In this document: positions 5,256-50,796 of the stretch, one piece after another
How the letters are laid out: each line of letters opens with the position of its first letter
Position numbering within the stretch: position 1 is the first letter of the stretch
From: a virus
Taxonomy: Duplodnaviria; Heunggongvirae; Uroviricota; Caudoviricetes
Virus record (IMG/VR): IMGVR_UViG_3300028602_000005
Location: 190,911 to 254,910 of that record
DNA: 64,000 nt
Direction: 5' to 3' (one strand)
Notes under the pieces: model-generated
The model's database searches: none
What the model was told of the DNA's origin: nothing
What the model saw: only the letters and a program-made list of their open reading frames with translations
Program-made: the position numbers and the translations under genes

Positions 5256-8200
5256 TTATTTTCCCTTCAAATTAAGATTTAAAGCTGTCATATAAGCCTT
5301 TAATAATTTTACAGATTCTGGTTCCAATAAACTATTATCTATTTCTTTGGGGAGCGAAAAATCAGGATCAATTTGAGATCTAACAAACATACTTTTAAGC
5401 TCTATACAATCAGATTTTAAAGTGATCATTTCATTTAAATTTTCTAATCCATTATGAGCTATTATACAAGCTGTTTCCATTTCTCCACATCTTTGACCAC
5501 CTTTATTTTTTCTCCCACTTATAGGTTGAAATGTTCTTCTTAAATAATTTCCACCAATGCTTCTAGCTGATAATTTTTCTTCTGCGATATGAACCATTTT
5601 AAAGAAATACATCCATCCTGTTGTTATTTCTTCTTGTATATCTTCACCACTTATCATATCTTTTAATTTATTTCTCATCCGAGTTTGTGTATATTTTAAC
5701 GCTTCTATTATTTGATCTCTATTTGAAGACTCAAAAGGTGGTTGCATTATATTTAATTTTTCTATAAATTCTTTATTTATTTCAATTTTGTCTAGCTCTT
5801 TACAAAATTGATTATAATACCAATTGCCATTAGTATTATCTATTATTTTAATGTAATCAGATAAATATTTTTTTAATTCTTCTTGATTTTCTTTTGAATA
5901 TTTATTGGATAATCTTTTAAACATTTCAGTTTTAAGATCATTTAAAGATGAAGTTAAATGTAATTCAAATAATTGTCCAAAATTCATTCTGGATAAAAAT
6001 CCTAATGGATTCAAACAAATATCAACATGTCTTCCATCTTTCAATTTTGGCATTTGATCGTAAGGTAATATATTTGAAATTGTTCCTTTGTTTCCATGTC
6101 TATTCCCTATTTTATCACCAACTTCAAGTTCTCTTGTATAAAAGGCATCTACTTTAACATATATACCATTTATTAATTCACCTTTTATTTTAAATTTTCC
6201 AGTATTATTTGAAAATTTATCTAAGCTATTATCATTTATAAAATCTTTTGCTTGTTCTTCCGGTAAATATTTATAAATTATATTTTGTAGTTTTTTCTCT
6301 TCATTTATTTGTAGTTCAACCTTTTTAGATATATAATCAGCATATCTTTTTATTGAATCATTATAAGTATTTACATAAAGTTCTACATTATAAATTAAAA
6401 CATTGTTTGTTTTTTCAGTATATAATTTTTCAGAATCTTTTAATAAAGTATAATAATCTATAGGACCATTTGGTATTTTTTTCATAATAGCATATGGCTG
6501 TTCAATATTCCTACATACATATTTTTCTAAATTTTCATTTTTACATATCTCTTTTTTAACACCAATTTCTTCAAATATTTTTTGAAAATCTGGATTAGGT
6601 AAAGGAATATAATCATTATCTGATAGACTTAAAAGAATAGCATCTGGAGGTATAGTGAATGATAAATCTAAATGATGTATAGATCTAAATTTATGTTTTA
6701 CTCTATCCGAAATAACAATTCCGTCTTCATAATTAAAGCCATGAAAAGGCATTACTGCGGTTAATAAATTTCTTCCAAAAATTATTTTTTTCTCTTCATT
6801 ACTTATAAAACTACCTCTTACAATAATATCTCCTTTTTGAAATTCAGAACCTACGTCAAGATTACTATAATAATCTAAGTTTTCAGTATAAATATTTTTT
6901 ATACCTATATTGAATATTTCATCTTCGCCATCTATATATTTTACAATTATGAAATTATTATTTACAAAGACCACTTTTCCATCATTTTTTGCCAATCTTA
7001 CAGATTGAGTTTTATCACTGTAAAGTGATTCAACTCCCGCTTCTATCATAGGTTTATCAAATGATGTTAAAAGAATTGCTTGTCTCATTTGCGATGCTGC
7101 CATTTGTAGTCTTGTTTGATCGTTATTTCTTAAGAATGGTGTAAATGAAACAGGAATAGAAACTTTTTCTTCTGCCAGTTCTTCTGAAAATTTTAAATTA
7201 TTATCTAATTTTACATTAGGTAATAAATTATGAAGAATACCACAATTTTCTCTATCCGGTGTATCAACAACACAAACTCTTCCGAACATAGAATCATCTA
7301 TATCTCTCAAATATCTTGGAACATTTGCCTTTTTAAAACCACCTGGTCCTAATAAACTTATTCTTGATAATTTAGTTAATTCTTCTATAGGATTTATTGA
7401 AAAATCAAATTGAATTATATCTGAAATATTTGATTCGCTTAATATTTGTTTAGTATTTATATTAAATTTTGGTTTTCTGGTAGTTCTATTTGCTACGCAA
7501 AAATCAAAAATTATTTTGGCATATTTTGATAGTATTATATATTCAAAACATCTAACTCTTTTATTAATTAAATTTATATCATCGAATTCTTCTGATTTTA
7601 TCGCATAAATTAATTCATCTATGATATTTTCAGTATGAAAAAATTGTTTAGATGGTAAATCAATTTTACTTATAAGATCTAAAGAATACATAAAATCACT
7701 GGCTTTAGATTTATTTGAATTGAATGATAAATATTTTGCGATATCATCTAAGAAATCTTCTTTTTTAAATCCTTCAGATCCTTCACAAAAATCTTTAAGA
7801 TCATATATCAATTTTCCAAATGTTGTATCGGTCTTAATATCTTCAGCTTTTATGTTATCTAAATCAAACATCTTACGTGTTTCTTCTATTCCATATTTAC
7901 ATAAAATAATTAAAACTAAAGGTACTTTTCTACCAAAAGCAGATAACCTAACAAAAGGAAATTTTTTAAATTCTTCAACAACAAATGTTAAGATATTAGT
8001 TCTTAACTTTATTGTTTTTCCTCTAGTAACTATAGGAATATCAAACATTTGAAATAATGGTAATTTCTTTTTACCACCAATAATAAAGTAATTATCATCT
8101 ATCAATCTAGGTATTAATAAACTTAAATCTATATCTTTACTATTTTTTCTTAATTTAACTATAAATTTTTGACTTATTGTTTTGAATAATTCATTTGATC

Positions 8201-8363
8201 TTGATTTAACATTTTTTATTCCAAACTCAATTACTTCAAATCCTATTTCTTCAGCAGGAATTAACATATTTCTGACTATTTGTTCAACTTTATCTAAATC
8301 ATTTTTTCTCAAATTAAAAATATTATTTTCCTGAAGTTTATATCTTGGATTTATTATTTCCAT
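5256..8363 (-). CDS. rpoB: DNA-directed RNA polymerase beta subunit (set 1)
   Basis: GRVCVVDTPDRENCG, RLQMAASQMRQA, GFNYEDGIVIS, GDKIGNRHGNKG, NPLGFLSRMNFGQ, GGQRCGEME. Confidence 0.95.
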   Translation of the reverse strand: MEIINPRYKLQENNIFNLRKNDLDKVEQIVRNMLIPAEEIGFEVIEFGIKNVKSRSNELFKTISQKFIVKLRKNSKDIDLSLLIPRLIDDNYFIIGGKKKLPLFQMFDIPIVTRGKTIKLRTNILTFVVEEFKKFPFVRLSAFGRKVPLVLIILCKYGIEETRKMFDLDNIKAEDIKTDTTFGKLIYDLKDFCEGSEGFKKEDFLDDIAKYLSFNSNKSKASDFMYSLDLISKIDLPSKQFFHTENIIDELIYAIKSEEFDDINLINKRVRCFEYIILSKYAKIIFDFCVANRTTRKPKFNINTKQILSESNISDIIQFDFSINPIEELTKLSRISLLGPGGFKKANVPRYLRDIDDSMFGRVCVVDTPDRENCGILHNLLPNVKLDNNLKFSEELAEEKVSIPVSFTPFLRNNDQTRLQMAASQMRQAILLTSFDKPMIEAGVESLYSDKTQSVRLAKNDGKVVFVNNNFIIVKYIDGEDEIFNIGIKNIYTENLDYYSNLDVGSEFQKGDIIVRGSFISNEEKKIIFGRNLLTAVMPFHGFNYEDGIVISDRVKHKFRSIHHLDLSFTIPPDAILLSLSDNDYIPLPNPDFQKIFEEIGVKKEICKNENLEKYVCRNIEQPYAIMKKIPNGPIDYYTLLKDSEKLYTEKTNNVLIYNVELYVNTYNDSIKRYADYISKKVELQINEEKKLQNIIYKYLPEEQAKDFINDNSLDKFSNNTGKFKIKGELINGIYVKVDAFYTRELEVGDKIGNRHGNKGTISNILPYDQMPKLKDGRHVDICLNPLGFLSRMNFGQLFELHLTSSLNDLKTEMFKRLSNKYSKENQEELKKYLSDYIKIIDNTNGNWYYNQFCKELDKIEINKEFIEKLNIMQPPFESSNRDQIIEALKYTQTRMRNKLKDMISGEDIQEEITTGWMYFFKMVHIAEEKLSARSIGGNYLRRTFQPISGRKNKGGQRCGEMETACIIAHNGLENLNEMITLKSDCIELKSMFVRSQIDPDFSLPKEIDNSLLEPESVKLLKAYMTALNLNLKGK

Positions 8364-8399
8364 ATTTTCTCCTAATCTTTTATATTTTGTGAGTTATTT

Positions 8400-8705
8400 T
8401 TAAATTTTAAATTTTATGGAAATCGCTATAGCTAATGTTATAAATGTTGAGTTGGTGATATAAAAATTTAACTGATGTAAATTCTTATATTCACCATAAT
8501 TTTGAAAATATATAGTTTCAAATATGAAACAAATAATAAATATTATAAAACAAATTAATAAAATAATTTTAAAACTTTTATTTTCATTATTTTTATTCAT
8601 TACAAACATTCTCTCCAAAAACCATTTGATCATATTTACCATAATAATTATATTCATTTTCTTTAAGTCCATCGAGCATACTTTTCTTAGGATTTGAAAA
8701 TCCAA
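8400..8705 (-). CDS. small membrane protein (true start probably downstream, near 8609)
   Basis: Two hydrophobic segments; lies between rpoC and rpoB; the listed N-terminus overlaps rpoC. Confidence 0.5.
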   Translation of the reverse strand: MDFQILRKVCSMDLKKMNIIIMVNMIKWFLERMFVMNKNNENKSFKIILLICFIIFIICFIFETIYFQNYGEYKNLHQLNFYITNSTFITLAIAISIKFKI

Positions 8706-11322
8706 AACCTACTGCCCAACTTTCTTTTTCTGGAACACTTTGGATACTATAAAATATCGGTTTAATCTTATTTCTATTTGGATGCAATCTCCATTTTATT
8801 CTTCCAACCCACATTAACTGCGCTACAATACACTCTATATGAACAAAATTAATATCTTTACTTGAATTATAAATATTAAATAATTTTGAAACAAATAAAG
8901 GTAAATTTTCGTGAACTTTTTCAGGAGTTTTAATATGTAATAATTTTGAAACTTGAGATAAATTATCTATAATATCTGTTTGCATCATATTTGAATTTTC
9001 TTCATGCATAACAGCAACGCCAGATGTATGAAATACTCTCAATATTAATTGAGTATTTATTTCACCCAAACTTTGTGCGGCAATTACTCCTATGAAAGGA
9101 CTGTGTAATTTTTCATGTAGTCTGCCATAACATTTATCGCAAATTTTTTCATTTTGACAATAAATAGGACTTCTTAAATTTATTTTCTTTTTTATTATTT
9201 CTTTATAATTTTCATTTGTAATTTCAATTAAAATTTTACCATCTGAATAAAACCTTCCAATTAACATTTCAGCTTGTTTTTTATTTTCTATTTTTATTTT
9301 GAGATAATCAGTAGTTCCACAATCAGAAGGACTTTTATCTTTCATTAAATTTATAGCTGTAAATATTAATTTTCTAGATTGATACCCAGATGTTCCGGTA
9401 TTTATAGCAACATCAAGAAGACCTTTTCTACATCCATATGTAGATATGAAAAATTCTCTTTCTGTTAAACCATCTAATAAACTGTTTTTTACAGGTTCTT
9501 TTAAAATTTTACCTTCGAAATTTGAAATAAACCCTCTTGTTAAGAGAACTTGTCTAGCTTGATCCCATTTTCCTCTCGCTCCAGAATATATCAAATATGA
9601 AAAATCACAATTATCTTTAACTATATTTTCAATGTCTTTTCTTGACACATTCATAACTTGTTTAGAAATTTCTTCTTCACTATAAATACTATCTCTTAAA
9701 AAATTTAATTCATTACTACTTAAATTTATCAAATCTAATGAAATTGTTGATCCATATAAAGTCGCATATTTAAAACCCATATCTTTTATATTATCAAGAA
9801 CTTTTGAAGTAACATCAGATGAATAAGAATTTTTAATTTTATTTAATAAATCTAATAATTTATTTTTATCTACCACTTCATTTATAACTTCATAATCTTC
9901 TGGAAGACATCTATTAAATAATTCTCTACCTTTAGTAATTTCCACACCTTTAAAATTAACCTTTTCATTTAATTTATTTATTTTATTATTAGTTAATAAA
10001 TATACTCCCAAAACAATATCTTGACTAGGTGTTAATGTTAAATCTTGATTTGCTGGATGAAATAAATTCTTTGAAGGGAGGAATTTTTCCAGAATCTCAT
10101 TTTTAGTTTTTTCAGAAACTGGAATATATACTGCCATTTGATCCCCATCAAAATCTGCATTATATGGTGAACAAACTAGTGGGTGAATTTTTATAACATT
10201 ATCATGAGAAAGTTTTATTTTAAAACCTAAAATACTTAATCTGTGAAGTGATGGTTGTCTATTTAATAAACAAACTTCATTTTCTATAATCTCTTCACAT
10301 ATAGGATATAATTCATAATTTTTAGAATCAATACAATTTTCTATATAATTGAGTGCTCTTGGTAATTGACCAAATCTTCCCAATTGAAGTAGTCTTTTCG
10401 CAACTTGAACTTTAAATAATTCTAAAACCATAAAATATGGTAAAACACATTCATCTAAATTTAAGCTTGGATCTGCTGATATAACTGCTCTACCTGAAAA
10501 ATCTATTCTCTTACCTAAAATATTTCCCCTTAATAAACCTTCTTTCTTTGGAAATTTTTCTATTATATGTTCATACAATTCAAATATATCTTTTTGAAAT
10601 TGTCTAAAATAATTATAATATAAAGTTTTATCATTAATAATATCTATAATAGTAGATTTTAAAGATTCTTTTTTAATTAGTAATTGCATATAATATTTAT
10701 TAATTTTATCAACTATTTGATTCTCAACAATAGCTGCTCTAGTGGAAGGTCTTAACTCAGGGGGAAGGACAATTATTTTATTTATTAAAAAATTATCTAT
10801 ATTATCTAAAAACATTTTCCAATCAGGACTTTTAGTTTCAGCATAAACATCTAAAGCTAAAATTTTTACAAATTCAAAAATAGCATCTGTTCGTTCCCAT
10901 ACTTTTATACTTAAATCGTTAGGTCTTTCATTTGAAACATATAAACCATCTTTATCTTTACATAAAAAACTTTTCTCATCTTTCATTAATTTATTTAAAA
11001 ATTCTTTAACACTATTTCCAGCTAAATTAATAAATAAATCATACATTATAGGATTAACAACTTTCATTGGTAGAACTATTTTGGCAAACCTTCTTCTTCT
11101 TTCAGAACTAGAAGATATTACCATTTTACAAACAGGACACTTTTCGCCTTCTCTAGATTTACCAAAATAAGTACCACATTCACAAGTATAACTCTTCAAA
11201 GGACCAAAAATTTTCTCAGAATATAAACCATTTGGATCAAATTTATTTTTTGAAAGTATTTTTATTGAAGATACTTCTGGTAAATTCTCACAGAATTCTT
11301 CAACATTTAAAATTTTCAGCAT
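8593..11322 (-). CDS. rpoC: DNA-directed RNA polymerase beta' subunit (set 1)
   Basis: Zn ribbon CECG..CPVC, LGKRIDFSGRAVI, NRQPSLH, catalytic NADFDGDQM, TGTSGYQSRKL, TQLILRVFHTSG, HIECIVAQL. Confidence 0.95.
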   Translation of the reverse strand: MLKILNVEEFCENLPEVSSIKILSKNKFDPNGLYSEKIFGPLKSYTCECGTYFGKSREGEKCPVCKMVISSSSERRRRFAKIVLPMKVVNPIMYDLFINLAGNSVKEFLNKLMKDEKSFLCKDKDGLYVSNERPNDLSIKVWERTDAIFEFVKILALDVYAETKSPDWKMFLDNIDNFLINKIIVLPPELRPSTRAAIVENQIVDKINKYYMQLLIKKESLKSTIIDIINDKTLYYNYFRQFQKDIFELYEHIIEKFPKKEGLLRGNILGKRIDFSGRAVISADPSLNLDECVLPYFMVLELFKVQVAKRLLQLGRFGQLPRALNYIENCIDSKNYELYPICEEIIENEVCLLNRQPSLHRLSILGFKIKLSHDNVIKIHPLVCSPYNADFDGDQMAVYIPVSEKTKNEILEKFLPSKNLFHPANQDLTLTPSQDIVLGVYLLTNNKINKLNEKVNFKGVEITKGRELFNRCLPEDYEVINEVVDKNKLLDLLNKIKNSYSSDVTSKVLDNIKDMGFKYATLYGSTISLDLINLSSNELNFLRDSIYSEEEISKQVMNVSRKDIENIVKDNCDFSYLIYSGARGKWDQARQVLLTRGFISNFEGKILKEPVKNSLLDGLTEREFFISTYGCRKGLLDVAINTGTSGYQSRKLIFTAINLMKDKSPSDCGTTDYLKIKIENKKQAEMLIGRFYSDGKILIEITNENYKEIIKKKINLRSPIYCQNEKICDKCYGRLHEKLHSPFIGVIAAQSLGEINTQLILRVFHTSGVAVMHEENSNMMQTDIIDNLSQVSKLLHIKTPEKVHENLPLFVSKLFNIYNSSKDINFVHIECIVAQLMWVGRIKWRLHPNRNKIKPIFYSIQSVPEKESWAVGFGFSNPKKSMLDGLKENEYNYYGKYDQMVFGENVCNE

Positions 11323-23431: not shown

Positions 23432-23506
23432 TGGTACTCCTGTAGAGAATTGAACTCTAATTTTAAGATTGAAGGTCTTACGTCCTAACCGTTAGACGAC
23501 AGGAGC
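23432..23506 (-). tRNA. tRNA-Glu(UUC) with C33
   Basis: GCTCCTG/CAGGAGT acceptor, Glu-type D arm, TAAGA-CCTTCAA-TCTTA anticodon arm, TTCAATT T loop, encoded CCA. Confidence 0.88.
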
Positions 23507-23515
23507 ATTTGTTTT

Positions 23516-24397
23516 TTAAATAATTTTTATTTGTGTTTCTTCTACAAATAGAATTGGATATATAGGATGTATTATTTTCTTCTTTTTAAGAGATATTTCA
23601 TTAAATCTATAATTTATATTAAAAAATACATCACCTAAATCTTTAAATTTATATTTATCGAAATAATATTCCATTCTACCATCTATTTCTGATTTTATAA
23701 TATCTAAATTAAAATAATTATCTGACTTTAAAATTCTACAAAGTTCAACAGTTTCCCAAGTATATCCTAATTCTCCCCAATCAGATTGACCCTTAAACAA
23801 ATCAGCAGATGGTTCTTGAAATATTAAAGTATCATCAAGTCCAAATTTTTTACCTAATAATTTAATATTTCTTTTTGAAATAGCTTTTAAAAGATTAAAA
23901 TGACCTAAACCATCACCAAACATTGTATAATATCCGATAAAATCTTCATCGGCATTGGATGTACTTACAACTAAAGCATTATATCTTCCAGCAATATTAT
24001 TTAAATTAAAAGCAATTAATCTCGATAAAATATTTCCATTATGAAATTTAACCTCATCATTTGTATAATTTAATAATTTATCCAATGTATGCATTCTATT
24101 GATAATTTCATTGAAATTATTACTAACATTTAAACTTATAAGGTTATAATTACTATTCTCAAAAAATTTTTCTACTAAAACTTTTTTATTTGAATTAAAA
24201 TCAGTCTCGATAAATACTGGAATAATATCAATTTTAAAATGTTTATTTAAATTATCAAGAATTGAAAATGTTACAAGTGAATCAATTCCACCAGATATTC
24301 CTAAGACAATTTTTCTTCCCATTAAATTTTCTTTTTTAAACATTTTAAAAACACAATCCATATAAAATTCGTAATCAAAATTAGGGAAAACTATCAT
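23516..24397 (-). CDS. nadE: NH3-dependent NAD+ synthetase
   Basis: LGISGGIDS, GNILSR, TSNADE..IGYYTMFGDG, PSADL..GQSD..ELG. Confidence 0.88.
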   Translation of the reverse strand: MIVFPNFDYEFYMDCVFKMFKKENLMGRKIVLGISGGIDSLVTFSILDNLNKHFKIDIIPVFIETDFNSNKKVLVEKFFENSNYNLISLNVSNNFNEIINRMHTLDKLLNYTNDEVKFHNGNILSRLIAFNLNNIAGRYNALVVSTSNADEDFIGYYTMFGDGLGHFNLLKAISKRNIKLLGKKFGLDDTLIFQEPSADLFKGQSDWGELGYTWETVELCRILKSDNYFNLDIIKSEIDGRMEYYFDKYKFKDLGDVFFNINYRFNEISLKKKKIIHPIYPILFVEETQIKII

Positions 24398-24430
24398 TTT
24401 TTAAAACCTTTCTTTTTTTATAAATAAATA

Positions 24431-24507
24431 TGGCTGTGGGGGTGGGGATCGAACCCACGAATCTCCTGATTAACAGTCAGGTGCTCTACCTACTGAGCTA
24501 CCCCACA
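24431..24507 (-). tRNA. tRNA-Asn(GUU)
   Basis: Cloverleaf, CCTGA-CTGTTAA-TCAGG, encoded CCA. Confidence 0.95.
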
Positions 24508-24516
24508 GTAAAATTT

Positions 24517-24954
24517 TTAAGAATCTAGTTTTTTTGCCACACGAATAATATTCTGTTTTTTATTTATTTTTTTACTCTTTAATAGATTTTCTTTGGAAAA
24601 AATCATTTCTATTATTTCAATTGCATGATCCAAGCTATCCCATATCATATCTTGTGAAATTTTAAAATCTATTGATATATCATCTATATAATTATTTTCC
24701 AAAAGATCTTCTTCACAGAAAGATCCTCTTGTGTCTAAAAAGAACATAATAATACCAGTCATAGTAAAAATATAAAAATCTTCTTTAGATGAAATAATAA
24801 TATTATTTTTTATCATATATTTATTAACATCTGTAAGAGATTTAGAAAGACCTTCTTTATATGTTTCAATAAAAGATTTTCCATTATCAATAATTTCGTA
24901 TGTATTAAAAAGTGTCATATCATCTTCTCCATTCCATTGTTTGACACATATCAT
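24517..24954 (-). CDS. hypothetical protein
   Basis: 145-aa ORF; true start possibly at MTLF. Confidence 0.55.
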   Translation of the reverse strand: MICVKQWNGEDDMTLFNTYEIIDNGKSFIETYKEGLSKSLTDVNKYMIKNNIIISSKEDFYIFTMTGIIMFFLDTRGSFCEEDLLENNYIDDISIDFKISQDMIWDSLDHAIEIIEMIFSKENLLKSKKINKKQNIIRVAKKLDS

Positions 24955-25444
24955 TCTTTGTATCTTTATTTTTTGAATATTTTAATTCAACTGATTCTTT
25001 AATATTTTTATCTTTAATTTCTTCTGCATTTTCCATTCGAATTTTAGTATCTACCCTTTTATTTAATTCTTTTTTTATCTTTTCGAATAATTCTAAATTT
25101 ATTCTTTCAAAATGAAATTCTTCTTCAGATGGTTTAAATTTAAATGATAAATATATATTTCCTTTGTATTCTAAAATTTCATTATATAATAATATTGTAT
25201 CATTACCTTCAATATATTTTTCATAATTCTCATTATTTATAGTAATAGTTACATTTTGAATTAATAATGATTTATCAATATTACTCAAATTTACTATCCT
25301 ACCATCAGTTTTATCATCTAAAGTTATATTCTCTATTTTATATGTATTTTTAAATATTAATAAAAAATCCATTGTTGGTGGCATACATGAAGATATCAAA
25401 AATAAACATATCAAAATAATTGAAGTTTGAAGAAATTTTAACAT
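24920..25444 (-). CDS. putative lipoprotein
   Basis: Signal peptide with lipobox-like LISSC. Confidence 0.6.
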   Translation of the reverse strand: MLKFLQTSIILICLFLISSCMPPTMDFLLIFKNTYKIENITLDDKTDGRIVNLSNIDKSLLIQNVTITINNENYEKYIEGNDTILLYNEILEYKGNIYLSFKFKPSEEEFHFERINLELFEKIKKELNKRVDTKIRMENAEEIKDKNIKESVELKYSKNKDTKNDMCQTMEWRR

Positions 25445-25474
25445 TTTTTAATCCTTTCTATTAATTTTTTAAAA

Positions 25475-25551
25475 TGGCGGGACCAACGGGATTCTAACCC
25501 GTAGCCTCATGGTTGACAGCCATGCGTTCTAACCATTAGAACTATGGCCCC
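25475..25551 (-). tRNA. tRNA-Asp(GUC), atypical T loop
   Basis: CATGG-CTGTCAA-CCATG; T loop TTAGAAT; GCCA end. Confidence 0.9.
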
Positions 25552-25563
25552 GTATTTTTTAAT

Positions 25564-26010
25564 TTATTCATATAAATCACTTCTAAGTTCATTAAAAAGA
25601 TCATTATCACTCAAAGGAACTATATCTGAAAATGAATCATGAATAAATAAATCTAGTATTTTCAATATACATGTCAAAGAATTTTTAAAATACAATTTAT
25701 ACCAAGTTAATTGACATCTTATTAATATATATGGTGATTCAGTTTCAGATTTATCGTCAATGTTTATTCCGATTAAAGGATCGTAAATTGCATCTATTTT
25801 TTTTGTAAAATGTCCTTTACCAATTCCCAATAAATACAATCTTTTATGATCCGATTCTCTAGGTCCGATCATCCAAATATCAGGTATATTATTAATTGTT
25901 TCTGAATCAGGTGCTTCTTTTACAATTAAACCCTTAATATTTTTAATCGAATCTTCTATCCAAGGAGCTTCAGTAAATTCTCCATAAAACTGTTCAGATA
26001 TATCTTTCAT
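25564..26010 (-). CDS. hypothetical protein
   Basis: 148-aa ORF with AAGGTG RBS. Confidence 0.6.
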   Translation of the reverse strand: MKDISEQFYGEFTEAPWIEDSIKNIKGLIVKEAPDSETINNIPDIWMIGPRESDHKRLYLLGIGKGHFTKKIDAIYDPLIGINIDDKSETESPYILIRCQLTWYKLYFKNSLTCILKILDLFIHDSFSDIVPLSDNDLFNELRSDLYE

Positions 26011-26039
26011 TTTAATTCACCTTTAACTATTTTCATCAA

Positions 26040-27299
26040 CTATTGTTTCTGTTTCCATATTTGAACTTCAGATCCTTTCATATTATGAATAGGTTTAATT
26101 TTAAAAAGAACATTTACAGTTGGTTCAATTAATAATTCTATTAATTCTGAGTCTTTATAAACTTCTGGAGATTCATCTATTGTTGTTTCATTTAAATTTG
26201 TTGAAAATATACCTCTCATATCATATTGATAATTTTCAACTTTTAAAGTTTTCTTTGCTTTAGATCTGCTTAATACTCGACCAGATCCATGTGGAGCAGA
26301 ACAATTCCAATCTGTATTTGATTTTCCTTCACAGATTAAAATTCCATCTCTCATATTAAATGGGATTATACACCTTTCACCCTTATATGCTCTTATCGCC
26401 CCTTTTCTTATAATATTATCTTCAAAACAGTAATAATTATGTATTGTTTCGATTTTGTCAAGTATTTTTTTATTTAAAATATCATTGACTATTATTTCTA
26501 TAATCTTTTCTCTGTTTAAAGAAGCAAATTCTTGAACGAATTTCATATCTTGAAGGTAAGATTCCATATCTTCACCCTCTAAATATGATAATTCTCTTGA
26601 AACATTATCAAGTTGAAATTTATCTTTTAATTTTTTTATTTTAAGTTGTATTTCATTTTTATCTAATGTTTCATCTAAAACCTTTTTAACTTCTTTCTTA
26701 AATAAAATTTCTCTTTTTGATTCTATATTTTTTTCTGCTCTTTTTTGCCAATATTCACATGTTACTTTTCCAAGATGCCTAGATCCTGTATGAACAGTTA
26801 ACCAAACATTTTCTTCTGGATCTTTTCCAAATTCAATAAAGTGATTTCCGCCACCTAATGTTCCAATAGATTTTAGAAAATATTCATTTTTATTATTCCA
26901 TCTTTTTTGACAAGATTTCTCAAACCAATCATAAGTAAATTCTTTTTTAAATAAAACATTAATTCCATTAATTACTTTTTCTCTTATATTTATTCCAAAT
27001 GGAATTAATTCTCTTATCTTTTTATCAACTTCATCATGATCTAATTCAATCTTTCCAAGATTGACTGATAACATGCCTCAAGAACCATCAACTCCAACAA
27101 TGTTTGGAATTATTTTATCTCCTTTTTCCATTGTGAATCCGATAACTGCTCCTTTTCCAGCATGAGTATCTGGCATCACAATAATTGGATTTGGAAATGC
27201 GGGATTATTAACCATTTGATTTATTTGTTTTAAACACTCTTCTTCAACTTCATCAATCATAATATACGCATTTGTATATTTTCCAGTAATTACTATCAT
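26040..27299 (-). CDS. rtcB: RtcB RNA ligase (419 aa) with in-frame UGA at the conserved Cys; candidate selenoprotein
   Basis: The two listed ORFs are one frame: ..VGVDGS-TGA-GMLSV.. aligns to the RtcB VGVDIGCGM motif. PDTHAG, GGGNHF, HTGSR, HNY, RKGA, SAPHGSGR and DESP..YK are all intact. Confidence 0.9.
27035..27075 (-). promoter_or_regulatory. putative bacterial SECIS element
   Basis: Perfect stem UCAAUCUU/AAGAUUGA with GGA loop starting 21 nt after the UGA; lower CAUG/CAUG and AUC/GAU pairings. Confidence 0.7.
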
Positions 27300-27301
27300 T
27301 T

Positions 27302-27700
27302 TTAATCCTTTAGAAATTTATTATAAAAATCTTTTTCTCCTTGATGAAATCTTCCTTCTTCGGTAAGTCCTTTATTGAAGAGTATATTTTTGATTCTTAA
27401 TAGATATTTCTCTTTTAAAAATTTTTTACTTGGTTTTCGATCCATAGATAGTAATGTTAATGCATCACCCAAACACTCTCTTAGATCGCTATCATTTTCT
27501 CTTTTACATTTTTTTCTATATTCTATTAAATTTTCACTGATTCTCAATAAAATTTGTGGGTAAAATCTAACATATTTATCAATCATTAAAAGAACACTTT
27601 TTAGATGTTTTTCTTCTTCTTCATTTAATAAAACCTTCATTAAATTATTAAGGTCATCAAAAATTTTATTTCTATCTTCTTCTTGTATTCTCTTATCCAT
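27302..27700 (-). CDS. hypothetical protein
   Basis: 132-aa ORF, tightly packed. Confidence 0.6.
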   Translation of the reverse strand: MDKRIQEEDRNKIFDDLNNLMKVLLNEEEEKHLKSVLLMIDKYVRFYPQILLRISENLIEYRKKCKRENDSDLRECLGDALTLLSMDRKPSKKFLKEKYLLRIKNILFNKGLTEEGRFHQGEKDFYNKFLKD

Positions 27701-27986
27701 TTATAATCTCCTTTACAGAAACTCTAACTACTTTTCCAAAACCATTTTCTTCACAATATTTAAATCCATCTGGAGAACACATTCTAACTAAAAATTCCTT
27801 TTTATAAATGAAATCTAGATCATTATCTTTTAAATCCAAATATCCATAATAATCCCCATTTTCATCGATTTCAACTTCGACACCAATTATTTCATTTTCT
27901 GGAACACCACAATATTTAACAACTTTTGGACTAACATAGAAATGATCAAAATATCCATCTTTTCTTTTATGTGCATATAATTTCAT
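27693..27986 (-). CDS. hypothetical protein
   Basis: 97-aa ORF with ATGA overlap. Confidence 0.65.
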   Translation of the reverse strand: MKLYAHKRKDGYFDHFYVSPKVVKYCGVPENEIIGVEVEIDENGDYYGYLDLKDNDLDFIYKKEFLVRMCSPDGFKYCEENGFGKVVRVSVKEIING

Positions 27987-28264
27987 ATAGACTGTATCTC
28001 TTTCAGAAATTTTTTGAAGTTTGGACCAGATTTTGCCATCTTAACTTTTTTATCATTTATTTTATAAATATCAGGATAAAAAACTTCTATAATTTTTTCT
28101 TCGACTAAATAATCTTCAAATTCTTTTATTGGCCCCCACATTACATCATCATCTACCAATCTTAACATTAAAAGTATATAATATTTACTTAATTCTAATC
28201 CCTCTTTTAATATTATTCTTTTTTGCTCATCTGAAACCGGAGGTCTATCTATTAAACTTCCCAT
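27983..28264 (-). CDS. hypothetical protein (start reassigned to ATG at 28264)
   Basis: AAGGA RBS precedes MGSLIDRPP; the longer listed start overlaps a structured RNA. Confidence 0.55.
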   Translation of the reverse strand: MGSLIDRPPVSDEQKRIILKEGLELSKYYILLMLRLVDDDVMWGPIKEFEDYLVEEKIIEVFYPDIYKINDKKVKMAKSGPNFKKFLKEIQSI

Positions 28265-28299
28265 CAAATTTTCCTTTAAATAATTTTGAAAAATGGTTA

Positions 28300-28370
28300 G
28301 TGGGAACAATAGAATTAAAAGGGCTGCTAGAAATTATTCTAACCCACTTACATTAATCTATTGAACCCAC
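28300..28370 (-). ncRNA. candidate structured ncRNA (long bulged hairpin)
   Basis: Nested pairings GTGGG/CCCAC, CAATAGA/TCTATTG, TTAA/TTAA, GGGTT/AGCCC, AGAA/TTCT; lies 10 nt downstream of tRNA-Pro. Confidence 0.5.
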
Positions 28371-28380
28371 TCTTATATAT

Positions 28381-28458
28381 TGGTCGGAGTAGAAGGACTT
28401 GAACCTTCGAAACCCCTCGCTCCCAAAGCGAGTGCTCTACCAACTGAGCTACACTCCG
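28381..28458 (-). tRNA. tRNA-Pro(UGG)
   Basis: CTCGC-TTTGGGA-GCGAG, C1-G72, ACCA end. Confidence 0.95.
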
Positions 28459-28468
28459 ATATTTTTAT

Positions 28469-28759
28469 TTACCAAGGTAAAACCATTTTAACCTCAAGAT
28501 TATCATATTTAAATATATGACTAAGTTTTTCACTGTCAAATCTTATTGAATGCGATAATTCTGAATTAACTGAAATAACACATTCATAGTGTTCTCCAAT
28601 AATTTTTAATAAAATATCATACTCTGTATTTTCAAATGAAATATCATATATTCTTGATTTTTTTAATTTATCAAATATAAAAAATCCTTTTTCAATCCAC
28701 TTAAGTTTATTATTTACTATATCATTTATAATTTTCATTTTATAATTTTCAAATTTCAT
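28469..28759 (-). CDS. hypothetical protein
   Basis: 96-aa ORF between tRNAs, GGAG RBS. Confidence 0.6.
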   Translation of the reverse strand: MKFENYKMKIINDIVNNKLKWIEKGFFIFDKLKKSRIYDISFENTEYDILLKIIGEHYECVISVNSELSHSIRFDSEKLSHIFKYDNLEVKMVLPW

Positions 28760-28781
28760 TGTTCACTCCAAAATTAAAAAA

Positions 28782-28857
28782 TGGAGCCGGTAGAAGGAAT
28801 CGAACCCTCGACAAGATGATTACAAAACATCTGCTCTACCTACTGAGCTATACCGGC
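28782..28857 (-). tRNA. tRNA-Thr(UGU)
   Basis: GATGT-TTTGTAA-TCATC (U31-U39 mismatch), encoded CCA. Confidence 0.92.
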
Positions 28858-28862
28858 TCAAA

Positions 28863-28954
28863 GAGCTAAAAATGGCTTACATTTGATTATTTTTATTATA
28901 GACATAGTTTATATCTAATATTTAAAATAATCTAATCTCATCTGTTTCTAGCTC
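28863..28954 (-). ncRNA. candidate rod-shaped ncRNA with 12x12-nt central bubble
   Basis: 10-bp stem GAGCTAGAAA/TTTTTAGCTC, symmetric 12-nt internal loop, 9-bp stem GATTATTTT/AAAATAATC and apical hairpin; fills the Lys-Thr tRNA spacer. Confidence 0.55.
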
Positions 28955-28967
28955 ATTTTAAATTATA

Positions 28968-29044
28968 TGGTGAGGATGGTGAGGATCGAACTCACAACTT
29001 ACGGATTAAAGGTCCGTTACTCTATCCAATTGAGTTACATCCCC
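28968..29044 (-). tRNA. tRNA-Lys(UUU) with C33
   Basis: ACGGA-CCTTTAA-TCCGT, TTCGATC T loop, ACCA end. Confidence 0.92.
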
Positions 29045-29045
29045 T

Positions 29046-29104
29046 TGGTCATGGGAAGGGCAATACCCTATTCAAAATACTCTAGAAATATTTTTAATCC
29101 CATG
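29046..29104 (-). ncRNA. D-arm-less tRNA-like RNA, CUA triplet in loop (59 nt)
   Basis: CATGGGA/TCCCATG-A-CCA acceptor; AAAATAT-TTCTAGA-GTATTTT arm; AGGG-TATTG-CCCT mini T arm. Confidence 0.7.
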
Positions 29105-29113
29105 ATATTATAT

Positions 29114-29184
29114 TGGCTCACATGGAAGGACTTTAACCTTCATAAAAGAACTCTAGATATCCTTTTATTCTTCCCGACATATGA
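29114..29184 (-). ncRNA. D-arm-less tRNA-like RNA, CUA triplet in loop (71 nt)
   Basis: TCATATG/CATGTGA-G-CCA acceptor; TAAAAGGAT-ATCTAGA-GTTCTTTTA arm; GAAGG-TTAAAGT-CCTTC T arm. Confidence 0.72.
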
Positions 29185-29195
29185 ATATTTCAGAT

Positions 29196-29273
29196 TGGAG
29201 GGGATAGAGAGATTCGAACTCTCAACCCTCAGATTAGAAGTCTGATGCTCTAGATCCATTGAGCTATATCCCC
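29196..29273 (-). tRNA. tRNA-Arg(UCU)
   Basis: TCAGA-CTTCTAA-TCTGA, TTCGAAT T loop, encoded CCA. Confidence 0.93.
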
Positions 29274-29275
29274 TT

Positions 29276-29349
29276 TGGCTCTCAGATTAGGGTTCGAACC
29301 TAAATTGGAGGATTCAAAGTCCTCTATCCTACCATTAGACGATCTGAGA
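29276..29349 (-). tRNA. tRNA-Gln(UUG)
   Basis: GAGGA-CTTTGAA-TCCTC, U1-A72, GCCA end. Confidence 0.93.
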
Positions 29350-29358
29350 ATAAACTTT

Positions 29359-30060
29359 TTATCCTATACCAAAATTTGAAACACTTTTCAATTCTTTTGG
29401 TACACACTCAGGATCATAAATATATTCTTCTTTTTCTTTATCCCATTTAAACCAAAAACATTCAGTGTAAGGATAAAGACCTTCATAAGTTTTTTCAATT
29501 ACTGCAAAATTATAATCACCTTCATTAATATCGCAATAATTTTTTTCTACGGTTTCTCTTGAATGATTATAATTTGAAAACCAACCAACAATTCTCTCTT
29601 TTTTAATATCAGCTTTTAAAAACATCAATGTTGTTATAGTATAAATCCAATAATGCATAACAATCCCATTAGCATTATCAAAATCTATATATTGAAGTTT
29701 TACTTTTTCCCAATCTATATTTTCACTCATTTCTCTAATAAATCCAATAGAAATTGGACAATCAAAACATATATCACTTATTTTCAAATCTAATTGTTCT
29801 AATTTGGATTCATCTACTTCTATATAAAAATCAATCTCAAAATATTTTTTATCTATATTGATATTTTTTAATATAAATGATTCACAAACTCCAATACATC
29901 CAATATCTCTTGTATATACCCCAACAGGATATATTTTTCTTTTTTCTGGATCATCTTTATCATTTTCAAATTTATTGAAAAAATTCAAAAACCTAAAATT
30001 TCCAACTTCTGATAAATCATCTTTATTGTCAAAGAACTTATAAGTAATCACTTTTTCCAT
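29359..30060 (-). CDS. hypothetical protein
   Basis: 233-aa ORF. Confidence 0.6.
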   Translation of the reverse strand: MEKVITYKFFDNKDDLSEVGNFRFLNFFNKFENDKDDPEKRKIYPVGVYTRDIGCIGVCESFILKNINIDKKYFEIDFYIEVDESKLEQLDLKISDICFDCPISIGFIREMSENIDWEKVKLQYIDFDNANGIVMHYWIYTITTLMFLKADIKKERIVGWFSNYNHSRETVEKNYCDINEGDYNFAVIEKTYEGLYPYTECFWFKWDKEKEEYIYDPECVPKELKSVSNFGIG

Positions 30061-30299
30061 ATATTCTTTATTCTCCCAATTAAATTGAAAAATCTTCTAA
30101 AATCCCAAACTGGCCAAATATGATCTCTTCCCCCAAAAATATTATCACATATGAAACTATTTATTCCTGTTACTTTATAAATTTTTGTTTTTTTATAATC
30201 ATCTTTAAAATATAACCATTCAAAAAATTTTTTAAATTTTTCCAAATTTAATATTTGTACATAAATCTTTCTAATTCCTCGAAAATAACTGATTTCCAT
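30048..30299 (-). CDS. hypothetical protein
   Basis: 83-aa ORF overlapping neighbours. Confidence 0.5.
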   Translation of the reverse strand: MEISYFRGIRKIYVQILNLEKFKKFFEWLYFKDDYKKTKIYKVTGINSFICDNIFGGRDHIWPVWDFRRFFNLIGRIKNIWKK

Positions 30300-30667
30300 A
30301 ATTTATTTTCTTTCTTTGTTTTAATATACATTTTAATGAAAATTAAAATCATAAAATATATTAATCCTGGAATTGTTATAAACCAAATTAATGAAGCTAT
30401 AATTAATTTAAAACTTAAAAATATAATAAAGAATACATATGTTTCTATTAATGAATAGTATGTACTATTAAAAGAAATATGAAATAATCTATCAAGAAAT
30501 TCATTTATCCTTATTTTTTCTTCATTAATATATAAATAAGAAGAATAAACTATTTGTAAAATTATCAAAATTAATATAAAAAACAAAGATATTTGAAGGA
30601 AAACTAAAAATACTTGAACATAATTATCTATTAAAAAATACAATAAATATTCGATAACCTTTAACAT
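30248..30667 (-). CDS. membrane protein
   Basis: Several long hydrophobic segments; AAGGTG RBS. Confidence 0.6.
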   Translation of the reverse strand: MLKVIEYLLYFLIDNYVQVFLVFLQISLFFILILIILQIVYSSYLYINEEKIRINEFLDRLFHISFNSTYYSLIETYVFFIIFLSFKLIIASLIWFITIPGLIYFMILIFIKMYIKTKKENKLWKSVIFEELERFMYKY

Positions 30668-30691
30668 TTTTTCACCTTTTTTCTTTAAAAA

Positions 30692-30781
30692 TGGAGGTAG
30701 GAGTGGGATTTGAACCCACGGACCTTTTACGATCTCTAGTTTTCAAGACTAGCTCCATAAACCTAACTCGGACATCCTACC
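30692..30781 (-). tRNA. tRNA-Ser(UGA)
   Basis: CTAGT-CTTGAAA-ACTAG, long variable arm, encoded CCA. Confidence 0.92.
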
Positions 30782-30792
30782 TTAATATAAAT

Positions 30793-30887
30793 TGGCAGAA
30801 GGGATAGGATTCGAACCTACGGGTCTACTTTTATTTTCAACCAATGGTTTAGCAAACCATCTCTTTAAGCCACTCAGACACCCTTCT
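30793..30887 (-). tRNA. tRNA-Ser(GCU)
   Basis: ATGGT-TTGCTAA-ACCAT, long variable arm, GCCA end. Confidence 0.92.
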
Positions 30888-45095: not shown

Positions 45096-48000
45096 TTATC
45101 CTCTTTCAAGCATTAGAGCAATAAAATATGAATTTAATAAATCTCTAACTGGAGATGTTTTTGGAACTTTAAAATCAGCATTTCCTGACTGAATTATTTC
45201 TGAAATTATTTCATTTTTAGTTCCTGCATCATCACTCAACGGTCCCAACATTTCAGAAAGAAAATTTATACAATTATATGATATTAATGAATATGTATCA
45301 GCTTCCCCTAATCTCTGACCACCATCTTGTCTTTTTCCAGCAGTTGGTTGACCAGTTTTCATTTTTAATGGACCAGTAGATCTTGAATGGATCTTAAGCT
45401 CTCCTAAATGCTCCAATTTTGAAATATACATATACCCAACTGGAACTTCATTTGCCGTTTTAACTCCAAATTCTGGAAGATATAAATTATAACCAGATTT
45501 AAGTCCTAAAATTTTCATAACTTGAATTATCTGCTTATGATTTGGAGCTTTAAAGGGCGTAATAATAAGAGGAAAAAATTCATTTTCTTTTACTTGATTA
45601 TAAAATTTATCAAATTCGGATTTTGGTAATTTTTCTAAATTAGATAGAAATGTTGTACTAAATTGTTTTTTAGGACTATTATCTAAAATAGGTAATGTTC
45701 TTTTTAAAATATCTATTATTTTATTTTTATCTTTTGCTTTTAAAATTCTTATTCCTAAATCCTTTGATATTAATCCTGCGTATAATTCATATAACTGACC
45801 AGCATTCATTCTACCAATTAAACCTATAGGATTTAATAGAACATCTATTCTATCTCCCCAAGGAGTTCTAGGCATATTCATATCGTCTTCTATTAATGAT
45901 ACAATTCCTTTATTCCCATGCCTATTACATAATTTATCTCCTTTATTTATTTTTAATTCTTGCTCTAATTTAAATTTTATTAAAATTCCTTCAATTGGCG
46001 TTCCTCTTACAGTAAATTTTTCTTGATTTTTTGTTCCATATCTTTTTCTAGTTTTTATAATAAGATCTTTTATAAAAGGAAATTTATCATCATCTATATT
46101 TGAAAATATTTCAATATCAACTACTTTTCCTCCAGGACTTTTCATAATCATTTCTTGACCTGATAATTCAAATGTTTCATCTTCTTCTATTCCTAAAAGT
46201 TCTTCCAATTCACCAATTGTTTTTCTTATTAAAGGATCACCTTTTTTTGTAAATGTTCCTATTTCAGATAATGAAATTATTCTATCTTTAACACCAACTA
46301 AAATTTCTTCTTCTATTCCATGAAGAGATGTTAAAGAATCATTTTCTATTAATTTTCTATTTAATACTATTCCATCTTCAAAATTATATCCTTTATATGG
46401 CATGAAAGCAACACATAATGTTCTTCCAAGAGAAATTTCACCACTATTTATACAACTTCCTTCCGCTATTATATCACCCTTTTTAACATTTTGTCCTATT
46501 TCAACTATTGGTTTAAAAACACTTAATGTATCTTTACCAACTCCAGATTTTAAATGTACTGGATTTAATGCTGAAATATGTTCTCTTCCATCTTCTTTAC
46601 ATATTATTCTTATTACTTCATCTGAAACAAAATCAACTTTACCGTTACATGGTGATTTTTTTACAAAATTATCAGATAAAATGCTTGTTAAAATAGATTC
46701 ATAACCAGATTTAACTATAGGAGATTTTGGATTTTTTAAAGGCAACATCTGTCTTGCTTGATTTACCGCCATAATAACTCTTGCTCCGTCATCATTTTCA
46801 ATAAATGGAATCATTGATGAAGAAGTTGATAAAATACCAGAACCGTCTTCATTTGATATTTCCTTTTGCCTAAAAATACCTCTCGCATTTGTTATTAAAG
46901 CGTCCATAGCTAATTGTTGTGTTATACCTATACTGCCTCCTTCTGGTGTATCCAAAGGATCAATATTTCCAAAATATGTAGGATGAACATTTCTTGCTTT
47001 TGTTTGAATAGCTTGTTTGTCAGGAATACCACCTAAGTTTTTTCCAACTGGCGCAACTCTTGTCATAGTTGCCATTTCTTCAATAGGATTTGCGTATTCC
47101 ATATTTGTTACTATTTCTGAATTTAAAAATTGACTTAAAACTTTAGTTTGACTTATTTCAAATTTGGCATTTTTATTTCCAGATAATATCTGCTCTCTAT
47201 AAACAGTATAAGCCGCAAGTACTTGTTTTTGAATTAAATGGACAATTACTTCAGATCCTCTAATTCTTTGATTAGTTAAATCATTTCTATCATCTTCTAT
47301 TCCTAAAATAACTTTTTCAGACATATACTTAATTATATTTTCAATTTCATATGGAAGTTGTTGATTTATAAGAACTTGTTTTGCGACAGGATCAACAATA
47401 TTATCCAAATTAGATATAATTCTATATGTTGAATTTGTTTTCCCTGTCATTGCTAGAATTAAATCACTAAAATATTCTTTTGTTCCGAAAGGTTTAGTAA
47501 CTTTAAAAGAATATATTTTTTCTCTTACAAAAGACTTAACTATTTGTCTTTTTAATTCCGTATCTACTTTTTCGAATATTATATATTGACTATCATTTAT
47601 TTTACAAGAAATATCTGGATCACCTTTTTTATCTGATATTGTATATGTAATTCCATAACTTTTCAATACTGAATCAAAACCAAAACTATATCCCATAAAA
47701 ACTAAAAATGGTAATTTATATCCCATGAATATTTGCAAATATTTTTCTCTTCTTAAAATTTTACTATAAACATAGAATTTAGAATAAGAACTTTCAAATC
47801 GAGCTTCATATTTTTTTGGAAAAGAAATTGGACATAAAATTATTTGATTTATAAGACATTTTCTATTACCATTTAATCTAAATGTTCCGAAATTTGGATC
47901 TATTTCTGGTATATCTATATTTATTAAATGTTTATTTCCAAAAGAATCTACTAAAACTACTCTAACAACACTAATATCTGATTTATCTAATTCACCAGGT

Positions 48001-49211
48001 TTTTTTCTTTTCGGCACTATTAAAATACTTTCAGTTTTTATAGAAACTTCTTTAGATTCCAATACCTTAAATGAATTATTTATATCATTTTTTAAATTTA
48101 TTTCAAAATCTATTTGTCTTTTTTGAAATAAATGATATGGTGTTTTTTCATCAACAGCTTTAGAAAGATTTGTACTATAAACAACAACATTATTAGAAGT
48201 AATTTTAGGTTTTGATTTAACTAAAAGTTGATCCGCAAAAGTTTTTTCTATTGCTTTTAAAATAGAATCTGTATTTGCTTTTAGTCCCACTTTTTCACTT
48301 TTTTTAACTATTTTATCAATGGTTTTTTCAGATTTCTTTAAATCACCACTATTTCTATATAAAATAGATTTTGAAACTAATTTATTTGCCTCATCTTTTT
48401 CTATTTTATTATCATCTATTATTTTTCCAGTAGAATCTGGTTTATTATTTAAATATGTTGTAACTATATCTTTTACTTTTTCTTTATTTTCTGGTGAAAC
48501 ATTAACATCAACTTTTTTTAATATAATATCAGAGGCTTTTTCAACATCTTGATCATTAATATCTGAAGTATCTATTTTTAAATTTCTTAAATATGTAGCT
48601 AATTTATCTATTTTATAATTTCTATTTTTTATTAATAATCTAAATTTAGTATGATCATTGTAAATCATAGCTAATAAAAGATGATCAAAATTTAAATCCC
48701 CATCCTTTAATTTCATCAATAATGGAAATATTTTTCTATTCGCAAAAGAAGGTAATGGTTTTGACATATCAACTGAATAAATAAGAATTTTTTCATAATT
48801 TTTATTATTTGAAAATACATTATATAATGTATCCATTATTAAAGTACCTTCTCTTGTTCTATAACTGTTAGGTTTAAATTGAAGATCAACAGCAGAAACA
48901 TAATTGGTTATATCATATATAACATTTCTATTTTGAGGAACAGGCATATTTGATTGATATGGTCTTAACTTAAAACTTTTAAGTTTTTTCATTAAATCTG
49001 GCGTTAATTTAGTTCGTGGAAATTTAGTATATGGAATAACAGCCAATTTTAAATCTATAAGTCTAAAATTTAATTTAGGATAATCTGTTATAAAATCAGA
49101 GTTTTCAGAAAAATAATTTATAAGATATGGATTTTCTCCTGGCTTTGGTTGATTAAAAATAATTTCTGATACTACCTGAGTATATTGTCTTATTAGTTCA
49201 AATTTAAACAT
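45096..49211 (-). CDS. rpoB: DNA-directed RNA polymerase beta subunit (set 2) with long N-terminal extension
   Basis: GNIDPLDTPEG, RVIMAVNQARQ, GYNFEDG, GDKLCNRHGNKG, NPIGLIGRMNAGQ, GGQRLGE. Confidence 0.95.
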   Translation of the reverse strand: MFKFELIRQYTQVVSEIIFNQPKPGENPYLINYFSENSDFITDYPKLNFRLIDLKLAVIPYTKFPRTKLTPDLMKKLKSFKLRPYQSNMPVPQNRNVIYDITNYVSAVDLQFKPNSYRTREGTLIMDTLYNVFSNNKNYEKILIYSVDMSKPLPSFANRKIFPLLMKLKDGDLNFDHLLLAMIYNDHTKFRLLIKNRNYKIDKLATYLRNLKIDTSDINDQDVEKASDIILKKVDVNVSPENKEKVKDIVTTYLNNKPDSTGKIIDDNKIEKDEANKLVSKSILYRNSGDLKKSEKTIDKIVKKSEKVGLKANTDSILKAIEKTFADQLLVKSKPKITSNNVVVYSTNLSKAVDEKTPYHLFQKRQIDFEINLKNDINNSFKVLESKEVSIKTESILIVPKRKKPGELDKSDISVVRVVLVDSFGNKHLINIDIPEIDPNFGTFRLNGNRKCLINQIILCPISFPKKYEARFESSYSKFYVYSKILRREKYLQIFMGYKLPFLVFMGYSFGFDSVLKSYGITYTISDKKGDPDISCKINDSQYIIFEKVDTELKRQIVKSFVREKIYSFKVTKPFGTKEYFSDLILAMTGKTNSTYRIISNLDNIVDPVAKQVLINQQLPYEIENIIKYMSEKVILGIEDDRNDLTNQRIRGSEVIVHLIQKQVLAAYTVYREQILSGNKNAKFEISQTKVLSQFLNSEIVTNMEYANPIEEMATMTRVAPVGKNLGGIPDKQAIQTKARNVHPTYFGNIDPLDTPEGGSIGITQQLAMDALITNARGIFRQKEISNEDGSGILSTSSSMIPFIENDDGARVIMAVNQARQMLPLKNPKSPIVKSGYESILTSILSDNFVKKSPCNGKVDFVSDEVIRIICKEDGREHISALNPVHLKSGVGKDTLSVFKPIVEIGQNVKKGDIIAEGSCINSGEISLGRTLCVAFMPYKGYNFEDGIVLNRKLIENDSLTSLHGIEEEILVGVKDRIISLSEIGTFTKKGDPLIRKTIGELEELLGIEEDETFELSGQEMIMKSPGGKVVDIEIFSNIDDDKFPFIKDLIIKTRKRYGTKNQEKFTVRGTPIEGILIKFKLEQELKINKGDKLCNRHGNKGIVSLIEDDMNMPRTPWGDRIDVLLNPIGLIGRMNAGQLYELYAGLISKDLGIRILKAKDKNKIIDILKRTLPILDNSPKKQFSTTFLSNLEKLPKSEFDKFYNQVKENEFFPLIITPFKAPNHKQIIQVMKILGLKSGYNLYLPEFGVKTANEVPVGYMYISKLEHLGELKIHSRSTGPLKMKTGQPTAGKRQDGGQRLGEADTYSLISYNCINFLSEMLGPLSDDAGTKNEIISEIIQSGNADFKVPKTSPVRDLLNSYFIALMLERG

Positions 49212-49214
49212 ATT

Positions 49215-50787: not shown

Positions 50788-50796
50788 TATTAATCC

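Follow-up and report, generated by a model that had tools for sequence, protein, structure and literature searches.

A UGA codon at the metal-bridging cysteine of a jumbo phage RtcB ligase, followed by a SECIS-like hairpin: a predicted selenocysteine gene

Introduction

The RNA ligase gene rtcB of a jumbo phage is interrupted by a single in-frame UGA. Is this codon a stop that leaves the ligase in two pieces, or is it read as selenocysteine (Sec) by the machinery of the host? An earlier note, made from the letters of the window alone (the window being the whole 64,000-base stretch of DNA analysed here), had proposed the latter. The codon concerned is a critical one: changing the Mn-bridging cysteine of RtcB to alanine abolishes all steps (PMC9745838, excerpts), and this cysteine is a known weak point under oxidation, which inactivates Cys-RtcB (excerpts of PMC9745838 and PMC13247085). 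Viral selenoproteins are known from poxviruses (PMC8310308, excerpts).

Results

Phage genome and setting of rtcB

The window lies at the end of a phage record of 254,910 bases (IMGVR_UViG_3300028602_000005, designated G000), which has 25% G+C and is ~82% complete. Features around rtcB are listed in Table 1. Two multi-subunit RNA polymerases are encoded in G000, as are a T4-type capsid protein (PF07068) and a terminase (PF03237). In this gene content it resembles the mReC-like RNA polymerase-encoding Caudovirales (PMC7481178, excerpts). The two separate beta/beta-prime polymerase gene sets were at window positions 5256-11322 and 45096-53148.

Table 1. Features at the rtcB locus, in window coordinates
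Feature	Position	Strand	Basis
Cluster of 10 tRNA genes enclosing rtcB, none of them tRNA-Sec	23432..30887	minus	tRNA calls
rtcB, 419 codons with the single in-frame TGA read through	26040..27299	minus	Pfam, alignment, structure model
Possible 4-bp lower stem around the hairpin; whole element -10.4 kcal/mol	27035..27075	minus	folding
SECIS-like hairpin, 8 Watson-Crick pairs, GGA loop starting 21 nt past the UGA	27046..27064	minus	folding, codon-aware controls
In-frame TGA, codon 74, at the D-x-x-C cysteine bridging two Mn ions; predicted Sec codon	27078..27080	minus	alignment, second assembly
Shine-Dalgarno-like AAGGA before the rtcB start, overlapping the end of the upstream gene	27306..27310	minus	sequence

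A kit for translation and for RNA and NAD repair was also seen in G000: bS21, an RF-1-domain protein, a CCA-adding-type enzyme, an ATP-type RNA ligase, TROVE, NADAR and NAD synthase (L215:10016-10291, L214:8974-9309, L217:997-2058, L220:17100-17726, L222:764-2296, L221:11431-11892 and window 23516-24397). The ATP-type enzyme (PF09414) is a second RNA ligase, and the ligase, CCA and TROVE genes are of the same kind as the RNA-repair gene set of jumbo phages (PMC7824862, excerpts). One canonical-looking tRNA of G000 (G000:C1:17286-17359, in L214), to which ARAGORN gave the label “Pyl”, has a CUA (amber) anticodon, and such a tRNA was likewise present in four related records (L388, L270, L396 and L420); TAG is an ordinary stop in G000.

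Genome-wide recoding of TGA (code 4 or 25) was rejected. G000 follows table 11: TGA is an ordinary stop that closes 43 of 305 ORFs, and coding density barely shifts, from 0.903 to 0.920, when TGA is left open. Scanning of G000 gave no tRNA-Sec above the cut-off and no call of a UCA-anticodon tRNA, and no Sel family was detected among the 236 G000 proteins scanned, which are part of its ORFs. Three public runs containing rtcB were landfill metagenomes, with no RNA run among those listed. Host searches with bS21, TnpB, the CCA enzyme, the capsid protein and the RNA polymerases returned distant or viral matches only.

Reading frame and product of rtcB

ORFs of 73 aa (27078-27299) and 344 aa (26040-27074) were found to share a frame with one TGA between them, as the earlier note had read them, and together they give a 419-aa RtcB. 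The stop of the upstream gene is 2 nt ahead of the rtcB ATG. Promoter and terminator scans performed no better than chance level. The joined protein matched Pfam PF01139 over its full length (profile positions 1-426, E 3.6e-56), and a structure model with Cys placed at position 74 was predicted to adopt the RtcB fold (pLDDT 89; Foldseek E 1e-19 to 3e-13 against RtcB structures). The 73-aa product is recorded from 2 contigs, and both rtcB halves are recorded as separate proteins.

The active site was intact apart from the UGA, again in line with the note, which had regarded all other RtcB motifs as preserved. By alignment, with the metal-ligand list (Asp, three His and the guanylylated His) taken from PMC9745838 (excerpts), the metal and GTP ligands D71, N152/H153, H170 and H287/N288 and the nucleophile H337 were all present, and 47 of 47 invariant columns were kept when U was scored as C. 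Conservation across the protein was at the low end: 115 of 124 well-conserved columns were kept against a homologue median of 121, an equally low score being found in 3 of 118 homologues. Either a long branch or relaxed selection could account for such a score. Identity to the RtcB of cultured and gut phages was ~40-45%, and to the nearest homologues ~55%.

Re-initiation at the ATG two codons past the UGA was considered and rejected; the resulting piece has neither D71 nor residue 74. Since termination at the UGA would leave just the 73-aa stub and a 344-aa piece minus the metal-bridging residue, an active ligase would depend on the host selenium pathway.

UGA at the metal-bridging cysteine

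The TGA column was Cys in 119 of 119 full-length homologues in the protein alignment. Because TGA forms are invisible in protein sets, DNA loci were examined too: 125 of 126 RtcB loci (124 viral and 2 metagenomic, with near-duplicates among them) had TGT or TGC, and the remaining locus did not cover the column. On alignment to Thermus thermophilus RtcB, residue 74 fell on the cysteine that links the two Mn ions (PMC9745838, excerpts), the role that the note had given to the D-x-x-C cysteine.

An assembly error, which the note had named as a possible refutation, was made improbable by a second assembly. A Logan contig from run X1 (708 nt, depth 3.9; a contig, not raw reads) spanned 26977-27300 with 0 differences, the TGA and the hairpin included, so that more than one assembly carries the TGA. 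Further rtcB pieces in X1 were short and of depth 2-3, which makes it unlikely that the long contig was assembled from X1, although X1 may represent the same site. Contigs of runs X2 and X3 gave no cover across the codon. When G000 and seven related records were compared using 2367 query genes, this TGA was the only single-stop interruption in G000 to pass the filter, in a test that reaches the roughly half of G000 with relatives to compare.

A SECIS-like hairpin downstream of the UGA

Folding recovered the 8-bp hairpin, its G-led loop and the extra lower pairs that the note had described. The eight pairs had probabilities of 0.65-0.97 in a 150-nt context, and the AU-rich upper stem was worth -5.5 kcal/mol. 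All four bSECIS constraints, after the bacterial SECIS rules in the Fig. 2 legend of PMC13188914, were satisfied (GGA loop, 8 bp, 21 nt, -10.4 kcal/mol), as evaluated with a custom script rather than with bSECISearch.

This plain rule is lax: it was passed by 10 of 105 distinct Cys-RtcB loci and by 38 of 900 phage Cys codons. The whole region folded no better than its dinucleotide shuffles (z -0.98 to 0.01), and an Rfam search gave no SECIS family match at the gathering score or at E up to 10. Only controls that take position and codons into account set the hairpin apart. Hairpins with a GG or GU loop and at least this stability (-5.5 kcal/mol) were found after 1 of 105 Cys-RtcB codons; for phage Cys codons the count was 4 of 900, and for random codons 20 of 1919. 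With the peptide fixed, synonymous recodings produced the hairpin 14 times in 20000 under genome codon usage and 32 times in 20000 under gene usage (0.07-0.16%), a rarity due to the uncommon codons GTC (5%), CTT (17%) and AAG (11%), all of which are needed for the pairing. The hairpin was the strongest of its type in rtcB, in range of just 7 of 390 codons, and the best among the 94 G000 TGAs open to read-through.

For calibration, 20 selD genes of one phylum (10 TGA, 10 Cys) were used. All 10 TGA genes had a 5-8 bp stem and a G-led loop at +17 to +20 nt, the loop being GGA in two, and an equally stable hairpin occurred in 1 of 10 Cys genes. The phage hairpin is similar to these selD SECIS elements; its upper stem was weaker than all 10 of the selD SECIS stems (-5.8 to -14.8 kcal/mol).

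Search for relatives with the same UGA

Single-protein scans of viral and metagenome contigs revealed no close copy of the phage RtcB. DNA patterns for the UGA form, by which forms with other flanking residues would be missed, gave 34, 9 and 14 viral (IMG/VR) matches and 10 GTDB matches, none of which was an RtcB with an in-frame TGA at the column. Related jumbo phages were found via their RNA polymerase (50 of 80 loci taken, 41 records searched). RtcB was present in 3 of these 41 mostly partial records, all with TGT, and was absent from the sole complete one; no tRNA-Sec above the cut-off was detected in the 41 plus 4 further related records. The note had proposed to check homologues for the TGA and a covarying hairpin, and this check came out negative: no relative found in this RtcB subfamily (the nearest ~55% identical) shares either. 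In these searches the phage UGA-RtcB locus is a singleton in its subfamily.

Two 74-aa N-terminal RtcB pieces, 51% identical and from contigs of 8.6 and 3.5 kb (P0141 and P0144), end exactly before the Cys column. They are a possible second UGA case judged from protein sequence, and were not counted as copies, being protein-level only and ending in a stretch that is an intron and intein hot spot. The C-terminal piece P0280, with the same Met start, was likewise set aside as more likely intron-split: its longest contig has the same length (10149) as that of P0211, which ends at a probable intron site. The G-V-D-x-x-C motif of phage-type RtcB is generally prone to insertions. Among 120 short pieces listed, 14 end directly after G-V-x, a probable intron site, and pieces at the hot spot include P0132, P0172, P0181, P0184, P0185, P0204, P0211 and others. 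Intein-like inserts at the RtcB Cys were seen in P0103, L045 and L111. Other N-terminal pieces (P0136, P0137, P0138, P0139, P0142 and clusters) leave the frame at or beside the D-I-G-C codons; they have many members, some on contigs >150 kb, suggesting recurrent frameshift or recoding.

A bacterial UGA-RtcB

An RtcB gene with D-I-N-TGA-G-V was detected in a bacterial genome, G049 (L213/L323, G049:C22:5151-6437), together with a -16.5 kcal/mol hairpin and a tRNA-Sec above the cut-off. Across 251 genomes of one phylum, TGA was found in one RtcB match among the matches listed, and no further bacterial UGA-RtcB besides that of G049 was found in 41 class-level and 26 related genomes. Like the phage gene, that of G049 has UGA at the same column and a G-led hairpin about 20 nt downstream, but it belongs to the archaeal-type subfamily and sits in a genome with its own tRNA-Sec. 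In a quick tree of 56 RtcBs, G049 fell in the archaeal-type group, whereas the phage RtcB was nested among Cys-bearing phage-type sequences, next to three with the same unusual D-G-x-C motif. The long, well-supported branches between the two indicated two separate TGA origins, and a seleno-RtcB has probably arisen separately in the phage.

UGA-containing spike-tip-like genes in related phages

Related jumbo phages carry a small spike-tip-like gene, which we take to be PAAR-like. Among 66 loci of this gene, TGA stood at conserved Cys columns in L467, in L481 (twice) and in L515/L516, and the bSECIS rule was passed by 3 of 4 of these TGAs against 10 of 168 Cys codons. L467:601-900 is in G407 (polymerase 54% identical to the G000 one); L481:601-900 is in G408, and its second TGA has an 8-bp stem and a GGA loop at +21, the geometry of rtcB; L515 and L516 are in G409 and G410. 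The same TGA and hairpin recur in G258, another member of the family (L408:9852-10158), in a copy that fails the strict rule and also carries a frameshift. A long hairpin is shared by the G407 and G258 genes, and its 3′ arm is absent from three Cys forms. No spike-tip-like homologue was found in the ~82% complete G000. Such UGA/hairpin genes in the family indicated that some of these phages probably infect Sec-using hosts; for G000 itself they would be indirect evidence of such a host.

Discussion

With a probability of roughly 70%, the UGA and hairpin of the phage rtcB direct SelB-dependent Sec insertion by the host, giving a full-length seleno-RtcB. This was the central proposal of the earlier note, and it is the reading with the best support: the UGA at an otherwise invariant Cys, the intact site, the SECIS geometry, the rare codons, the bacterial case in G049 and the genes of related phages all point the same way. 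Counting against it are the lack of a second UGA copy among the subfamily members searched, the weak AU-rich stem, a region that folds no better than shuffles, the laxness of the plain bSECIS rule, the low conservation of the protein and the frameshift in the G258 gene. In the proposed mechanism, a host SelB-Sec-tRNA complex would bind the GGA-loop hairpin just past the UGA and insert Sec at codon 74, both Sec-tRNA and SelB presumably being supplied by the host, and the two Mn ions of the resulting ligase would be bridged by a selenolate. The UGA would derive from a Cys codon inside the phage-type RtcB lineage, apart from the bacterial UGA-RtcB. The seleno-RtcB may seal 2′,3′-cyclic-phosphate/5′-OH breaks in tRNA or other RNA during infection; this substrate, nuclease-cut tRNA or other RNA, is suggested by the protein family and by the place of the gene. 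The role usually assigned to phage RtcB is to mend tRNAs that anticodon nucleases have cleaved (PMC7824862, excerpts).

Other explanations have to be set against Sec insertion. A recent TGT-to-TGA nonsense allele, with a dispensable ligase inactivated, the allele spread locally and the hairpin present by chance, is in our view unlikely, though it has several points on its side. One base change is enough, 94% of the Cys codons of the phage being TGT; TGA was found in no relative; RtcB occurs sporadically in the family (in 3 of the 41 mostly partial records) and is low in conservation here; and the phage has its second, ATP-type ligase. Such an allele nevertheless needs two independent coincidences, the hit on an invariant Cys and a hairpin whose chance rate was 0.07-1.8% depending on the control, in an rtcB without other lesions and a genome where no other single-stop gene was found. 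That the TGA is an assembly or sequencing error is very improbable indeed. The support does consist of contigs and the confirming one is of depth 3.9 and maybe from the same site, but this independent contig has 0 differences at the codon, and the 73-aa product was recorded from two contigs.

The remaining alternatives accept that the UGA is read and differ in how. A SelB-like factor could deliver cysteine on a Sec-like tRNA (selC*/tRNA-ReC), making an ordinary Cys ligase, and the same sequence signal would be expected. These tRNAs occur in anaerobic Firmicutes, Thermodesulfobacteria, Nitrospirae and delta-proteobacteria, where UGA with a downstream SECIS means Cys (excerpts of PMC5389517 and PMC13582414). 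They are a minority, in about 13-17% of the genomes in PMC13582414 (excerpts) and beside a full Sec system, and no UCA-anticodon tRNA was called in the phage; we regard this reading as improbable. Still less credit is given to low-level read-through independent of SelB, by near-cognate Trp or Cys tRNAs or weakened termination, with the hairpin merely stimulating. The RF-1-domain protein, bS21 and the CUA-anticodon tRNA of the phage might speak for it, but TGA is an ordinary stop in G000 and the CUA tRNA reads UAG, not UGA. Trp would not bridge the metals of RtcB. Only Cys or Sec is expected in that position (PMC9745838, excerpts).

Returning to Sec insertion by the host, a broader picture is one we somewhat favour. 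The jumbo phage would have evolved its seleno-RtcB on its own, so that the Mn-bridging ligand of this enzyme family would have changed from Cys to Sec twice independently, and it would belong to a phage family in which several genes (rtcB here, the spike-tip-like gene in relatives) rely on host SelB. RNA repair would then be gated by the selenium pathway of the host, and with a selenolate the enzyme may escape oxidation. A benefit of selenium under oxidation is a hypothesis built on the sensitivity of the Cys form.

The phage RtcB has its fold, GTP/Mn residues and guanylylated His motif in common with Cys-type RtcB (Pyrococcus horikoshii 4dwq/1uc2, T. thermophilus TTHA1785 2epg, human RTCB and the enzymes of Bacillus and Clostridioides phages), and differs from them in its UGA at the metal-bridging codon and in its SECIS-like hairpin. 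It matches bacterial selenoprotein genes with an in-ORF SECIS (PMC13188914, main text) in having UGA at the catalytic Cys, a 3-nt G-led loop, an 8-bp stem, 21-nt spacing and -10.4 kcal/mol; unlike them, the phage has no Sec machinery of its own that was found, and its stem is AU-rich and weaker. Reliance of a virus gene on host Sec insertion has a counterpart in the Sec glutathione peroxidases of the poxviruses molluscum contagiosum and fowlpox (PMC8310308, excerpts). Those are captured antioxidant enzymes with a eukaryotic SECIS, whereas the phage gene encodes an RNA-repair metalloenzyme with a bacterial-type signal.

The note knew of no described phage Sec-RtcB, and our literature search on RtcB with selenocysteine and on phage selenoproteins, which mostly left subscription literature outside its scope, likewise found no report. 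The main text of a 2026 review (PMC13188914) and the text of BSepDB (PMC13326102) have 0 mentions of RtcB, phage or virus, and one possibly incomplete BSepDB supplement has 0 mentions of RtcB.

If the Sec reading is true, selenium would be put to an unusual use, away from redox catalysis, in bridging two Mn ions, and a natural Sec form would make the effect of selenium on metal choice and oxygen tolerance directly testable. Two separate origins, if true, would suggest a real advantage. A core counter-defence gene of the phage would also have come under the control of a recoding system of the host, which would restrict the phage to Sec-using hosts. The case would further illustrate how gene calling breaks up such genes, here into the two halves of the phage rtcB.
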